64,000 nucleotides of DNA from a virus (lineage: Duplodnaviria > Heunggongvirae > Uroviricota > Caudoviricetes). The notes below the pieces were generated by a model. It saw only the letters and a program-made list of their open reading frames with translations, was not told the origin of the DNA and did no database searches. Below are positions 12,018-50,021 of this stretch, piece after piece. The stretch is taken from positions 1 to 64,000 of the IMG/VR virus record IMGVR_UViG_2913167280_000003; one strand, written 5' to 3'. Positions within the stretch are counted from its first letter, which is position 1. Every line of letters begins with the position of its first letter. The position numbers and the translations under genes are program-made.

Positions 12018-12291
12018 GAGTTGACTTGTGAGCCATGTGTAAAAAACGACTGAAAGAAAACACCACGGAAGAGGTGGAAAGTGATTAATTTTTACTAGAA
12101 TAAAAAGGGGCCCCAGAGAGCGCCCTGATAATACGAAATTAAAGGGAAATAAATTACAAGAAGTGTAATTCTTTGCCCTCTGAATATGCAATCATGGTTA
12201 GACAAGCAAGATAGGGCGAATTAAAATTAATCAATAGTCACTTTGTTAAGATGCGCAACATCGCTTTAACATTTTATGCTTGTCATGATAT

Positions 12292-13023: not shown

Positions 13024-13332
13024 TTAATATACTATCTGGTCTACATGATCACCAAAATCATCGTCGTCGTCCTCATCGCCACCATCTACAGATGGCCAAT
13101 CAACAAACCAGCCAGCGTAAAGATGCAGCGTTCGGAGAACATCACTTGCGGGAGAATCAAGGGTGTTAACGAATCCCATATAGCTATTGGGATTTGCCCC
13201 AGCTATGGCTTCAGCGATCATGTCCTCGGTAATGTCACCGGAGATAATGCTTAAACGCCCGGAAACTTCTTCATTATCATCAAACTCGACAATGGCATTC
13301 CCGCCTAATGGCGCTGCGATTTTAATCTGCAT
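13024..13332 (-). CDS. Small highly acidic protein at the 3' end of the dar operon
   Basis: 102-aa ORF whose start overlaps the ddrB stop; C-terminus DGGDEDDDDDFGDHVDQIVY. Confidence 0.45.
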   Translation of the reverse strand: MQIKIAAPLGGNAIVEFDDNEEVSGRLSIISGDITEDMIAEAIAGANPNSYMGFVNTLDSPASDVLRTLHLYAGWFVDWPSVDGGDEDDDDDFGDHVDQIVY

Positions 13333-16309
13333 TATTTAGCTCCTTTGCCACACCTAATAACAGTTCCAGCAATCCGTCACCATTCATCAGTGATGCGGCA
13401 GCGGCCTCTTTGTCATGATACAACTGAAGAGCCATAGAGAATACTTCCGTTGCTGACGTTTTGGAAATTGTCGGAGATTTTTGTCGAAATTTACCAGAAT
13501 TACTCACTGAGACAGGCGGGTATACCTTCGCCATATAAATATCACTCAATCGAGATCTGAAGCACCATTCAGGCTTGCCACGCCCACCGATATTAACGAA
13601 AGATGGCTTATCCCCTTCAACATTGGCCTTCAGGAATGACCTGGCTTTCTCTAACAAACCCGGGTTACTGTACTCGAGATGATGACCCAGCTCGTGCCAC
13701 AGTGCACTTGCATTTTCATCGTTCAAATTGACAGCAACAACACCATTTAGATTTGCATATGCCCTTCCCTGGTGGTGAACCACCTTTGATAAGGTCAATA
13801 TTTTCCCGCCGGTCAGGCGGTAAATATCAGCAAGTTCCTTGCGCAGGTCTATCCCTCCATTCTGTCCAGCGCGGGCTTCTTCCACTTTTTCCGTGATAAA
13901 AGAGTCGGCCCACTCAAGAGCTTTTTCTTCAGATACGGATGAGTTGGTGATCGCACTGTTCATGACAGATAACACTTTCTCGTGGATCGAATCCATACTT
14001 CGCTGATTCATTTGCCAGCGTGTCTGCGGGTTATATGAGAATCGCTTAAGTAGTTGGTCAAGATGCTCAAGTTCTTCTTCGCTGACATACTTTTTAGCCT
14101 CACCAATAATGCCGGGGAGAATATTGCCGTTAGGATTAAACGCTCGCGAAAGGAAGAGTTTCAGCGCCCCCATGCCCTCCGATGCTTCAATATCACCAAT
14201 AACCCGGTTAACAATGGCCGCACTCTTCGGATTAGCATCCGCCAACGCCCTGGCTACGATTTGCAGGGACGATACGACCTCACGCTGCATATCCGTCCTG
14301 ATCCCATCAATAAACTCTGGCGTTATGCCGTGCTCTTTAAGAATATCCCGGCCTTCCGCCGTTACCCCATCGATATCCCCGAGATGTTTATTAACCCGAC
14401 TTTGCAATGCCTTAAATGCCTTCAGAATTCCACGGGCATCATCCGCTTTACTAACGGCCTTCCTGAATGCTGGCAAGAGGTCTGAGTTAACCTCATTTTG
14501 TTGATCGGCCCACTGAATGGAGGCTTCTTTCATCTCGTCCAGAGTCAGATCACCCAACGCGGTATGGTCTGTGAATATGAGCGACAACCTCTGAACCATT
14601 TCTGACAATGGTGATGCCGAATGCGCCGCGCTAAGGAAGGCTTTCACCCTGGTTGGGCGAATGGAAAACCAGTCAATAGCTGGTGGCATATCTCCGTTTT
14701 GTATCGCCTGCGCTATCTCATCAAAGCCGTCGCGCCCAAGGGAGGATGCGTGATTTAACAATCCGCGAAGTAACGAATTACTGATACCGAATAATCGGCA
14801 CCATTTTTTCACGTCGGCAACAGGCATTCGGACAAAATGCGCAAGCACTTGTACAAGCTGCTCATCCTGGGGATCGGTGCGGGATAGCAGCCTGATCAGA
14901 TGAATAATGTCTTTGATACCGGATGCCCGATGTAATAGCAAGCTGGTATATGGAGCAACACCGTTGTAACTACCGTCGGAAGCTGACTCGAAAAGACCGC
15001 CGGATATCCCTTGCATGCCTTCGTTTTCCAGTTCCTGAGACACCTGGCGAAGGATATCCTGTAACGACACATCACCACCGCCAAACATATCCCCCAGCGC
15101 CTGGCCCTGGTGCTGTAACTCATCATTGATACGTTGCGCCATCAACTTAAAGGCGGTGGCCATACGCTTCGCGCTACGGTTATTCGCGACGATGAACAAC
15201 GCGAGTGCTTTCACTTCCGGGGCCGTTTCGCTGAACATATCCCCCTGAGCAATAACATCGGTAATATGCTGGCCTGACTCCTTCGATTGCCTTACCAGGT
15301 CTACCGCATCTTTCAATGCCGCCAGCGCCTTTTTATCGAGGCTATCCGCTGTTTCAATGCCATCAACGATAGTTGTCACAGCCTGCTTGTGCGCTTCTCC
15401 TGATAAAGCCTGCATCTGGACAAAATCATTGGCTGCCGCATTAAGCGCCGTCAGAACATTACGCATATCCGGATCAGGTTCTTCTGCAACCATCCTTACC
15501 AGGCGCGCATCCTTATATGCCTTGGCAAAGATCGCGTTTTGTATCCGGTCAACAAGTTGCCGTGTTGGTCGCCCATCTTCCGTTACAAGGCCAGCAGCCT
15601 GTGTGGCACCAACTTGCGTCATGAATCCGCGAATAAACGCGTCATTACTGCGGCTAAGCAGATCCCCGCTTTCTGACGGGTTAAACAGCGCCATCATCGC
15701 CGGAGTTATGCTGTCGGCATCAACAAAAGCCTTTTCACTGGCTGCCATTTCCTGGAGATCAGAAATATTTGAGTCCTTGGCAAACTGAACTCGGTCAACC
15801 TTCGTCAACCGGCGGCGCACCAGTACCGGAGCCGTCATTAATTCAACCTTTTCAGGGCGTATGCCGAATTCGGTCGCATGTTCAATCAGGTACTCCCGAT
15901 ACCGATCCGCATTACCGTCCTGATAGGCTTTAATGATCCCCATGGTCCGCCCATTACCTGACTCAACGGCATTGTCCTCACCAATTATCGGTGCGCCATG
16001 GCTGGATAAACCGGAATCGGTAAGCTGGGCAGGACGCAAATCCTTGGATATCTGGTTAACCTGAAGAAGGCTGGATGCGCGGGTCCGGTCGCGCGGCTGA
16101 AGTTCCTGGGGATAGTCTGGATTAATTTTCCCATCCAGAGTATTGGATACCAAAAGAGCTGAGGCATCGACGATATCAAACGCCGTTTTTACCTCGTCTC
16201 CCTTCGCTGTCACCACATACGAAACCCGCCCGTAATCGGGCAGGTTCTTTAGCAGCTCGATCAGCGTTTCTATGCTGGTGGCCATAACCACCTGATCGCT
16301 TAAGCTCAT
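13322..16309 (-). CDS. ddrB: DdrB-like large virion-associated protein with HEXXH motif
   Basis: 995-aa ORF last in the hdf-darA-ddrA-ddrB order; contains WHELGHHLEY (zinc-metallopeptidase-like HEXXH). Name by synteny. Confidence 0.55.
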   Translation of the reverse strand: MSLSDQVVMATSIETLIELLKNLPDYGRVSYVVTAKGDEVKTAFDIVDASALLVSNTLDGKINPDYPQELQPRDRTRASSLLQVNQISKDLRPAQLTDSGLSSHGAPIIGEDNAVESGNGRTMGIIKAYQDGNADRYREYLIEHATEFGIRPEKVELMTAPVLVRRRLTKVDRVQFAKDSNISDLQEMAASEKAFVDADSITPAMMALFNPSESGDLLSRSNDAFIRGFMTQVGATQAAGLVTEDGRPTRQLVDRIQNAIFAKAYKDARLVRMVAEEPDPDMRNVLTALNAAANDFVQMQALSGEAHKQAVTTIVDGIETADSLDKKALAALKDAVDLVRQSKESGQHITDVIAQGDMFSETAPEVKALALFIVANNRSAKRMATAFKLMAQRINDELQHQGQALGDMFGGGDVSLQDILRQVSQELENEGMQGISGGLFESASDGSYNGVAPYTSLLLHRASGIKDIIHLIRLLSRTDPQDEQLVQVLAHFVRMPVADVKKWCRLFGISNSLLRGLLNHASSLGRDGFDEIAQAIQNGDMPPAIDWFSIRPTRVKAFLSAAHSASPLSEMVQRLSLIFTDHTALGDLTLDEMKEASIQWADQQNEVNSDLLPAFRKAVSKADDARGILKAFKALQSRVNKHLGDIDGVTAEGRDILKEHGITPEFIDGIRTDMQREVVSSLQIVARALADANPKSAAIVNRVIGDIEASEGMGALKLFLSRAFNPNGNILPGIIGEAKKYVSEEELEHLDQLLKRFSYNPQTRWQMNQRSMDSIHEKVLSVMNSAITNSSVSEEKALEWADSFITEKVEEARAGQNGGIDLRKELADIYRLTGGKILTLSKVVHHQGRAYANLNGVVAVNLNDENASALWHELGHHLEYSNPGLLEKARSFLKANVEGDKPSFVNIGGRGKPEWCFRSRLSDIYMAKVYPPVSVSNSGKFRQKSPTISKTSATEVFSMALQLYHDKEAAAASLMNGDGLLELLLGVAKELNNAD

Positions 16310-48813: not shown

Positions 48814-50021
48814 GCCGACTCACCCCTGACAAACTCAATCCGATCAAACACAGCCTTAGTGAAACGCTCGGCCTCGGTTCGTGCCTTCTTCAGTGCCTCA
48901 GCACTGCCTGGATATGATTGCGGGTTGGCACTGATTACGGTGTCGAAAGACTCGCCGCATCGCTCGAAGCCATCCAGGCGAGGCAGAGAAGAGTCCAGAA
49001 TGTTGCTGGCGTAAACCTCGCGCGCAAGGCTGTGTGATGTCTCGTGGTCGCGCTTGCCGGTCATCTTCGACATAAAACCAATGCTGGCGCTTAAACGCGG
49101 CTCTACGCCTTCCTCCTCCAGTTGCTCCAGCATTTCTGGCAGACGGGTGAGATATTTCAGAGTTGAGTGGAAGTCAACCTGGGCTGGTGGGGTAGGGGTA
49201 AGCAACAGATCGCTTGCCGCCAGACCGTTAAGCAGGAACGGATCCAGGTGCGGACCGGTATCGATAAAGATAAAGTCATAATCGTCAGCAACACGATCAA
49301 TGATATTGCGTCGAAGGATTTCGTACTGATTTTGTCCAGGAAGATGCTCTTCAACCAGCTCTTTCCATTGGCTGGCAACAAAACCATCGTCGATAGAGGC
49401 TGGAATCACGTCTACGCCAGGAACGATGGTCGGACGAATCACCTCTTTGCGTAGCGTCTCCGCGTCCAGGTCGTTCAGCATCGCCTGCGCGGCTGTTTCC
49501 AGAATGGAGCCAATACTGTGAGTATGGTCGAGGAACATTGTGCTGGATGCCTGCGGGTCAAGGTCAATAACCAGAATGCGCAGGTCGTGACGCAGTAAAT
49601 CCTGATGCACACGCAGCGCGTGCGCCAACGTGACTGTGGAAACCGTTTTGGATACGCCACCTTTCAGGTTTACGACAAAAATAACGTAAGGCGATTTGTG
49701 AATGTCGCGATATTTGGGAATCTTGCGGTGGGCATAGATATCAATGACGTTCTGGATGGTGAGCGCGTACTGTTCAACGTTACCGACCTGTTTCTTGTTG
49801 AACTGGTACCCATCATCTTCCATCTCTTTGATGGCCTGCTCCACAATGCGGCGGCTCAGCTTCGGCAACTTTGCCACAGCGTTACGAGTAAACGTCTGAT
49901 AATACTCGGTCTGATTGAACTCTTTGCGCTGATCTTCGATATCCTGGCTCATGGCCTTCAGCAATGCGCTTGCACGAAGAGCTATGGTGCCGACACCGCC
50001 GTAATCGCGTTTCATCATCAT
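48810..50021 (-). CDS. parA: Partition ATPase ParA
   Basis: 403-aa ORF with deviant Walker A NLKGGVSKTVSTVTLAHAL, between the incA iterons and parB. Confidence 0.9.
   Translation of the reverse strand: MMMKRDYGGVGTIALRASALLKAMSQDIEDQRKEFNQTEYYQTFTRNAVAKLPKLSRRIVEQAIKEMEDDGYQFNKKQVGNVEQYALTIQNVIDIYAHRKIPKYRDIHKSPYVIFVVNLKGGVSKTVSTVTLAHALRVHQDLLRHDLRILVIDLDPQASSTMFLDHTHSIGSILETAAQAMLNDLDAETLRKEVIRPTIVPGVDVIPASIDDGFVASQWKELVEEHLPGQNQYEILRRNIIDRVADDYDFIFIDTGPHLDPFLLNGLAASDLLLTPTPPAQVDFHSTLKYLTRLPEMLEQLEEEGVEPRLSASIGFMSKMTGKRDHETSHSLAREVYASNILDSSLPRLDGFERCGESFDTVISANPQSYPGSAEALKKARTEAERFTKAVFDRIEFVRGESA

Follow-up and report, generated by a model that had tools for sequence, protein, structure and literature searches.

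DdrB is a head-packaged component of the Dar anti-restriction system of phage P1. The P1 virion proteome lists it as a head protein, represented by 39 peptides covering 59.5% of its sequence. In the GenBank record of P1 the ddrB product is a 'possible metallopeptidase', an entry that has stood in the genome annotation since 2004, and the prediction for P1 DdrB is also found in Lenart et al. 2013. The P7 record gives 'Prt, putative protease' and that of JL22 a 'putative metallopeptidase'. By profile-profile comparison, Iyer, Burroughs, Anand, de Souza and Aravind (2017 J Bacteriol, PMC5512222) assigned a C-terminal zincin-like metallopeptidase domain to P1 DdrB. These authors predicted autoproteolysis, with the cut made before packaging and an N-terminal fragment of ~76 kDa entering the head. 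The '76 kDa processed form' itself goes back to old gel data, cited second-hand in Iyer et al. 2017 (PMC5512222).

The sequence-only reading of the present locus had left it as a question whether a peptidase motif had been noted before for P1 DdrB, and the GenBank records and the two papers answer that it had. Among the papers searched, none describes a catalytic-site mutant of DdrB or shows that the protein binds zinc or cleaves peptides. In the P1-like locus described below the HEXXH observation is confirmed and the peptidase reading, already known, is plausible from conservation and modelling. What is added here is the finding that the motif is invariant in several hundred homologues, together with a confident model, a specific candidate for the third ligand, and domain boundaries.

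The ddrB locus and the layout of its product

The window is the whole stretch of DNA analysed, 64,000 nucleotides of a Caudoviricetes genome. On its minus strand, positions 13322..16309 hold an open reading frame with an ATG start, 995 aa and a stop codon, containing NASALWHELGHHLEYSNPG. It aligns with ddrB of P1 and P7 over the full length (100% coverage) at 96.6-97.2% nucleotide identity, and its product is matched end to end by phrog_2299 (1-995 of 995). P1 DdrB (YP_006491) and P7 Prt (YP_009914499) have the same length of 995 aa. The window protein is 97.1% identical to P1 DdrB, with 29 amino acid differences, and has 27 substitutions relative to P7; the conserved positions are spared, and all conserved catalytic residues are the same in the three proteins. 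The gene sits in the late darA operon beside those for DarA, DdrA and Hdf, and the order hdf-darA-ddrA-ddrB-hxr is common to P1, P7 and the window, where hxr, ddrA and darA are present as neighbours of ddrB. P1 differs in having an IS1 element and isaA a few kb past hxr; the window lacks the former and most of the latter. On sequence grounds the product is DdrB itself, beyond merely DdrB-like, encoded by the orthologous gene of a P1-like phage-plasmid.

Conservation was scored across 40 full-length homologues. The conserved N-terminal module (aa 1-425, 15035..16309, minus strand) encloses a DdrB-like ParB-superfamily domain (aa 36-167, 15809..16204, minus strand; Pfam PF18763, E=1.6e-39). This family alone passes in a whole-protein Pfam search of DdrB, which returned no peptidase family. 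Mean conservation of the query residues per 25-aa bin is 0.52-0.85 at aa 26-425 and 0.27 at aa 1-25. The hypervariable central region (aa 430-775, 13985..15022, minus strand) has conservation values of 0.07-0.33 and is marked by indels, with gap fractions of 0.22-0.28 at aa 476-525 and 0.20-0.36 at aa 700-775. The C-terminal part (aa 780-995, 13325..13972, minus strand) is predicted, from an AlphaFold2 model and 361 homologues, to form a zincin-like metallopeptidase domain with a core at aa 822-995 and an N-terminal helical extension.

As modelled, DdrB has the polyvalent-protein build, with an N-terminal ParB-type domain, a variable helical middle and a C-terminal predicted peptidase. The combination of ParB-like and peptidase domains, the place in a late operon and the presence in the virion head all fit proteins of this class. 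Elsewhere the peptidase domain is fused to ddrB-ParB, InPase, Phage_Mu_F, Rho_N and LPD3, and it occurs in PHROG 'minor head protein' families; the domains added in relatives are InPase, PBECR2, MuF and LPD3. The fusion partners described in Iyer et al. 2017 (PMC5512222), namely DdrB-ParB, InPase, MuF, LPD domains and Rho-N, recur here.

The HEXXH motif and the predicted fold

The stretch WHELGHHLEY occupies residues 871-880 of DdrB, with HELGH at residues 872-876 (window 13682-13696, minus strand). Its presence in the 995-aa protein had been read correctly from the sequence, whilst its placing near the C-terminal third was inexact, as it lies 87% along the chain, in the last eighth. From DdrB's own composition 0.0275 occurrences of HExxH are expected by chance. 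The window's 68 open frames of 150 codons or more hold one further HExxH, HETSH in ParA (49032-49046), which is taken as a chance occurrence.

An exhaustive HMMER search with the C-terminal 255 aa of DdrB gathered 361 proteins at E<=1e-3. A word-indexed protein search confined to the C-terminal 172 aa returned just five fragments, and gave way to exhaustive HMMER and to a search with the full-length protein. Exactly one HExxH is present in 154 of the 157 matched stretches. Within HELGHHLE (aa 872-879, 13673..13696, minus strand), H872, E873 and H876 are kept in 149/149 diverged homologues and E879 in 99%; over the same C-terminal 255 aa, E914 is kept in 94% and Y925 and Y930 in 95% each. In alignment A1, made up of 27 sequences that share 21-45% identity with the query, the invariant columns are R849, A852, H872, E873, G875, H876, E879, E914, Y925, E955 and S958. 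Invariance in two sets of more distant full-length proteins (A2 and A3, with 104 and 84 members) is confined to the two His and the Glu of the motif, Y925 and E955, the last of which is invariant in all the alignments made. Since H872, E873 and H876 are conserved across all 149 diverged homologues, the HEXXH of DdrB is beyond chance, and a fortuitous motif was rejected. Conservation of the motif among homologues, one of the checks proposed earlier, has thus been borne out, with a Glu and a Tyr further downstream also invariant in distant relatives. At the sequence level, near-absolute purifying selection on H872, E873 and H876, together with E879, E914, Y925 and E955, is shown in several hundred homologues.

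The roles of these residues can be assigned provisionally. H872 and H876 would be zinc ligands and E873 the general base activating water. The third zinc ligand is most likely E955, which lies in TEVFS (aa 954-958, 13436..13450, minus strand) and in the model stands at the N-terminus of helix 956-962. E914 (13568..13570, minus strand), nearly invariant in A2 and A3, is an alternative candidate, either for third ligand or for second-shell residue. Y925 and Y930 (Y925...Y930, 13520..13537, minus strand) are candidate transition-state stabilisers by analogy with the Tyr of lethal factor and clostridial neurotoxin. RAYA (aa 849-852, 13754..13765, minus strand), at and in the second beta strand, may form a substrate-binding edge strand.

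From a single sequence AlphaFold2 gave a pLDDT of 38.9 for the domain, and this was replaced by a run on the 27 diverse homologues of A1, with a pLDDT of 89.8 and a pTM of 0.85. In that model helix 822-832 is followed by strands 842-845, 851-853 and 857-860, then by helix 867-881, which carries the HEXXH, and later by helix 956-962. The order fits the zincin core topology of a helix, a three-stranded sheet, an active-site helix and a second helix, and in this respect structure prediction around the motif, which the sequence-only reading had also put forward as a check, did not refute it. The model matches the core described in Iyer et al. 2017 (PMC5512222), where a helix and a three-stranded sheet precede the HEXXH helix, a second helix bears a Glu, and variable inserts lie between these two helices. 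On topology, a zincin fold for the DdrB C-terminus is plausible.

Neither the profile nor the family consensus had a significant match among PDB sequences by hmmsearch or phmmer. Foldseek likewise found no significant solved structure in the PDB (best E=0.9, probability 0.25); among its weak matches the only recurring families are zincins, PprI/IrrE being placed 1st, 9th and 23rd and anthrax lethal factor 11th and 47th. When A1 was compared by hhalign with MtfA of E. coli MG1655, a lethal-factor-like zincin, the probability was 0.4%, the strand and HEXXH helix being aligned sensibly. No Pfam peptidase family was matched above its gathering threshold by the 27 domain sequences, the 84 full-length relatives or the family consensus, and the sub-threshold matches of family members are mostly to zincins (Reprolysin_2/3/4/5, Zincin_1, Peptidase_M10). 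DdrB and its relatives do not pass the gathering threshold of MPTase-PolyVal (PF18818). The DdrB-type domain differs from the polyvalent-protein zincins in that no Pfam model matches it, whether in the query, the 27 and 84 relatives or the consensus. It also has Glu instead of Asp three residues past HEXXH, and the invariant residue near its strand 2 is an Arg, where one widespread phage clade is described as having His (Iyer et al. 2017, PMC5512222).

In gluzincins with a long spacer, such as lethal factor of anthrax (M34) and thermolysin (M4), HEXXH is likewise combined with a Glu on a helix further along, in DdrB the candidate ligand E955, and with a conserved Tyr close to the active site. 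The E-x-x-S of DdrB (E955...S958) resembles the NExxSD motif of thermolysin. The spacer from H876 to E955, of 79 residues with an extra helix and beta-hairpins, sets DdrB apart from both enzymes, and the Foldseek matches of its domain to lethal factor are not significant (E=3.0 and 9.1, TM 0.23-0.25). Lethal factor is also the HHpred link for a related N4 domain (Iyer et al. 2017, PMC5512222). Membership of the metzincins, defined by HEXXHXXGXXH and a Met-turn, was rejected, as HELGHHLEYSN has E879 in place of the Gly and N882 in place of the third His.

The overlapping gene hxr

The gene after ddrB, hxr (13024..13332, minus strand), shares 11 nt with the ddrB stop region and encodes a very acidic protein of 102 aa (pI 4.05). 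A small acidic hxr ORF overlaps the 3' end of all protease-bearing DdrB homologues examined (6/6), and hxr is missing beside the informative homologues without a peptidase (2/2). The conserved ddrB-hxr pair is a side lead added by the present analysis.

Proteases of the ImmA/IrrE type (PprI, COG2856) pair with XRE repressors, and the P1 record labels hxr an Xre homologue. PprI is also the best Foldseek PDB match to the DdrB domain (8slm, with 3dte and 3dti further down), at an insignificant E=0.9. An ImmA/IrrE (M78)-Xre pair was nonetheless rejected, there being no Peptidase_M78 match and, despite the label, no HTH domain in Hxr at E<=0.1. The protease-repressor analogy is unsupported because Hxr lacks a detectable HTH and is extremely acidic. 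It is a long shot that the DdrB peptidase is paired with Hxr in another manner, Hxr serving as an inhibitor or chaperone that silences it until head assembly, or else as its co-factor or its substrate; within this proposal the peptidase might also be ejected and cleave a host defence protein. If that is true, DdrB would counter restriction directly by proteolysis.

Processing, loading and possible substrates

Taken with the model, the conservation makes it very likely that the C-terminus of DdrB (aa ~780-995) is a genuine, probably active zinc peptidase domain of zincin type, with the gluzincins as the candidate subclass. The earlier suggestion of a genuine metalloprotease site is accordingly plausible from conservation and AlphaFold2 topology. 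Its second half, that the injected cargo may include a proteolytic activity, is a conjecture; the published hypothesis has a cut before packaging, after which the ~76 kDa N-terminal part enters the head.

In the proposed mechanism H872, H876 and E955 would bind Zn2+, E873 would activate water and Y925 would help to stabilise the transition state. Following Iyer et al. 2017 (PMC5512222), the peptidase domain would most likely act while the head is being assembled, cutting in cis or cleaving Dar proteins next to it. The cut would probably fall in the hypervariable linker at ~aa 700-775, freeing a ~76 kDa N-terminal part which contains the ParB domain and which might help to load DarB. Computed fragment masses indicate that a cut yielding an N-terminal fragment of ~76 kDa would fall near aa 700, in this variable, indel-rich linker. 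The match in mass may be partly coincidental, because a frameshift in the 1998 P1 sequence split ddrB into ORFs of 715 and 283 aa. Autoprocessing of DdrB specifically is put forward tentatively, its chances being somewhat short of even.

Any processing of DdrB could instead be the work of the prohead protease. Pro of P1 is similar to the gp21 protease of T4, the major capsid protein is presumed to be cut after Glu (E120), the P1 record notes that DarA undergoes processing as the head matures, and several [LIVM]-x-E sites occur in DdrB at aa 657-811. The DdrB peptidase would then have another task in assembly, for example trimming DarB, Ulx or DdrA or removing a targeting sequence, with which the fixed order of Dar loading, DdrB before DarB, is compatible. 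Such a division of labour is unlikely, since a strictly conserved second, dedicated peptidase in the same polypeptide argues for a substrate in cis or very close by. A catalytically dead relic, whose motif would serve only to hold a structural metal or to contact other proteins, would agree with the lack of a significant match to characterised peptidases and with ddrB being non-essential for plaque formation. This is highly improbable, however, as E873, dispensable for a purely structural zinc, stands at 100% in the 149 diverged homologues, along with the conserved Y925 and E955, and such residues are typically what pseudo-enzymes lose.

The substrate might also lie in the host. A peptidase domain that stays attached or is co-packaged could be ejected with the DNA and cleave a type I restriction subunit or other defence protein, in which case the Dar cargo would be truly proteolytic. 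The peptide coverage of DdrB in the head (59.5%) would allow for the presence of most of the chain, and loss of DdrB alters protection against EcoB and EcoK. Iyer et al. 2017 (PMC5512222) list such a role as possible for polyvalent-protein peptidases, and N4 vRNAP, ArdC and TraC1 are delivered unprocessed (Iyer et al. 2017, PMC5512222). In Xanthomonas phage Rb1 a homologous peptidase protein is flanked by an 'internal head protein' on one side and a DarB-like SNF2 ATPase on the other. Yet the ddrB phenotype is currently put down to failed DarB loading, and Dar works only in cis on packaged DNA, a poor fit with a diffusible protease. An effector acting in trans is for these reasons somewhat unlikely.

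If the predicted DdrB domain is active, the P1 Dar system would have a dedicated protease besides the prohead protease. Knowledge of its target, whether DdrB, other Dar proteins or a host protein, would clarify how the 250-kDa DarB is loaded into the head and released from it, and through this would bear on the engineering of P1 virions for protein delivery.

The HELGH motif of DdrB and its conservation

The open reading frame at 13322..16309 (minus strand, ATG start, 995 aa) is identified by sequence as the DdrB of a P1-like phage-plasmid. Its DNA is 96.6-97.2% identical over the full length to ddrB of P1, P7, SJ46, RCS47 and related P1-group phages, 29 of 995 residues differ between the P1 and window proteins, with every conserved catalytic residue the same, and the surroundings match the darA operon of P1, with hxr downstream and ddrA and darA (carrying DarA_N and DarA_C domains) upstream. 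Nearby, the IS1 element and most of isaA, found between ssb and isaB in P1 (5952-6852 of L001, the P1 comparison locus), are missing from the window (12050-12182), where the flanks join directly; this would fit an IS1 insertion specific to P1.

The HEXXH motif that the sequence-only reading had picked out in this protein is indeed present, as HELGH at residues 872-876 (13682-13696, minus strand; surrounding sequence ALWHELGHHLEYSNPG), although it lies in the last eighth of DdrB and not, as had been proposed, near the C-terminal third. The chance expectation from DdrB's own composition is 0.0275 motifs. Among 68 open frames of at least 150 codons scanned in the window, the only other HExxH is HETSH in the ParA partition ATPase (49032-49046, minus strand), which is taken as a chance occurrence. 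As to whether the motif had been noted for P1 DdrB, it has, and the metallopeptidase idea is already known from both public annotation and the literature. The P1 reference record describes ddrB as 'unknown protein function; possible metallopeptidase', the P7 gene is named prt ('putative protease') and the phage JL22 gene is annotated 'putative metallopeptidase'. The prediction was mentioned earlier by Lenart et al., and Iyer et al. (2017, PMC5512222) assigned a C-terminal zincin-like metallopeptidase domain to P1 DdrB, proposing that DdrB is trimmed by its own peptidase to ~76 kDa before packaging. No experimental test of the predicted peptidase was found in the literature searched.

When 1.84 billion representative proteins were searched exhaustively by HMMER with aa 741-995, 361 of them matched at E<=1e-3, and exactly one HExxH is present in 154 of 157 matched stretches among the matches listed. 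In the 149 rows less than 60% identical to the query, H872, E873 and H876 are kept in 100%, E879 in 99%, E914 in 94%, and Y925 and Y930 in 95% each. Across 27 mutually diverse domains (21-45% identity to the query) the invariant residues are R849, A852, H872, E873, G875, H876, E879, E914, Y925, E955 and S958, whilst two sets of more remote full-length proteins (104 and 84) leave just five columns without variation, the motif's H, E and H plus Y925 and E955. The motif is conserved in homologues along with downstream candidates for a third ligand, E955 and E914, which is the check that had been proposed for a genuine site. Keeping the general-base Glu along with a later Glu and a Tyr is what one would look for in a working enzyme of the gluzincin type and not in a relic, and a chance motif is ruled out by the same residues.

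Predicted fold and search for peptidase relatives

AlphaFold2 returned a pLDDT of 38.9 from the single sequence, and a mean pLDDT of 89.8 (pTM 0.85) when supplied with the 27-domain alignment. The latter model comprises an N-terminal helical bundle (aa 744-814), a helix (aa 822-832), three strands (aa 842-845, 851-853 and 857-860), a helix bearing HELGHHLE (aa 867-881), a further helix (aa 883-895), a beta-rich insert containing E914, Y925 and Y930, and a helix at aa 956-962 with E955 at its start, followed by two more helices. The order of elements is that of the zincin core described by Iyer et al. (2017, PMC5512222): one helix, then a sheet of three strands, then the HEXXH helix and, beyond an insert that varies, another helix supplying the Glu ligand. 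E955, within T-E-V-F-S, would be the third zinc ligand, being kept more strictly than the alternative, E914, and placed at a helix start. Conservation and predicted topology together make a strong case for an enzyme-like site.

The metalloprotease-like fold sought for the motif is supported in topology by a confident model with the zincin order of elements, but not by a significant match to any solved or curated peptidase in Pfam, NCBIfam, PDB sequence, Foldseek or hhalign comparisons. The sole Pfam match in DdrB is a ParB-like domain (PF18763, aa 36-167), and neither a Pfam search with the family consensus, an NCBIfam search of DdrB, nor searches of PDB sequences with profile, consensus and single sequence gave a match. 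Foldseek against the PDB found nothing at E<=0.001, and hhalign aligned the strand and HEXXH helix with those of E. coli MtfA, but at a probability of 0.4%. The weak signals lean toward zincins: the best Foldseek PDB match, itself weak, is PprI/IrrE (found again at ranks 9 and 23), with anthrax lethal factor at ranks 11 and 47, and sub-threshold Pfam matches of family members are mostly to zincin families. Predicted viral structures yielded four strong matches, all uncharacterised phage proteins, followed by a 'phage head morphogenesis domain' protein (probability 0.99).

A predicted peptidase module and its companion gene

In 40 full-length homologues, DdrB is well conserved at aa 26-425, hypervariable at aa 430-775 (indel-rich at aa 476-525 and 700-775) and moderately conserved at aa 780-995. 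A 131-aa counterpart of P1 iddB (unknown function; 14109-14504, plus strand, opposite ddrB) overlaps the hypervariable stretch at about aa 602-735. Relatives from Vibrio and other P1-like elements (comparison loci L010 4001-5845, L013 1501-3369 and L011 4001-8530) have differing domain sets: Vibrio elements encode InPase plus DdrB-ParB proteins of about 614 aa which lack the peptidase, whilst one 1509-aa relative unites PBECR2, InPase, ParB and peptidase. This argues, from sequence, that the peptidase is a separable, swappable module. In other proteins it is joined to two ParB domains plus InPase, to PBECR2, to Phage_Mu_F, to Rho_N or to LPD3, and a 'minor head protein' family is among the PHROG families sharing it. 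The unrelated Xanthomonas phage Rb1 (L016 1-6564) has a Dar-like trio in which a DdrB-type metallopeptidase protein (637 aa) is flanked by an internal head protein on one side and by a DarB-like SNF2 ATPase on the other. All of this fits a polyvalent-protein picture.

The downstream gene hxr (13024-13332, minus strand) overlaps ddrB by 11 nt. The P1 annotation gives it as a possible Xre-like repressor; no HTH domain was detected in Hxr, which is extremely acidic (pI 4.05; 22 Asp/Glu versus 3 Lys/Arg). In each of the five other peptidase-bearing homologues examined, the 3' end is overlapped by a comparable ORF of 97-121 aa and pI 4.05-4.33 (L005 9029-9322, L007 8901-9224, L011 8530-8880, L014 4205-4570 and L015 4433-4756), also where ddrB lies apart from the darA operon, and most of these ORFs share a G-x-x-V-x-W-P-like motif. 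Such an ORF is absent beside the peptidase-less homologues in both informative loci (L010 and L013). The sample is small (six peptidase-bearing homologues including the window) and two more distant phages do not fit the pairing cleanly; Hxr may work together with the peptidase.

Possible roles during head assembly

DdrB is a virion head protein (39 peptides, 59.5% coverage), listed as an aid to the incorporation of DarB, which it precedes in loading; ddrB is non-essential for plaque formation. Judged by fragment masses, a cut yielding an N-terminal piece of 76 kDa would fall close to aa 700, within the variable region. The autoprocessing claim nevertheless deserves caution. In the 1998 P1 darA-operon sequence (AJ000741, 4718-7704), a single-base frameshift divides ddrB into ORFVI (715 aa) and ORFVII (283 aa), the former close in length to the '76 kDa, ~700 aa' form later called a processing product. 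The 76 kDa figure comes from old gel data, as cited via the 2004 genome paper, and on both counts processing of DdrB is itself to be taken with reserve.

The C-terminal domain of DdrB is probably an active zinc endopeptidase. A dead domain is highly improbable, given the general-base Glu retained with its downstream partners. Cleavage of DdrB might fall to the gp21-like prohead protease Pro, leaving the DdrB peptidase to act on other Dar proteins, and the presumed Pro cut in the capsid protein, after Glu, speaks for such an arrangement, which we consider quite unlikely; action of the injected peptidase in trans, as a proteolytic cargo, also seems unlikely. Processing in cis or locally as the particle is assembled is tentatively favoured because the cargo carries a peptidase of its own, because the variable linker sits at the would-be cut and because the family is typical of multi-domain proteins delivered with DNA.
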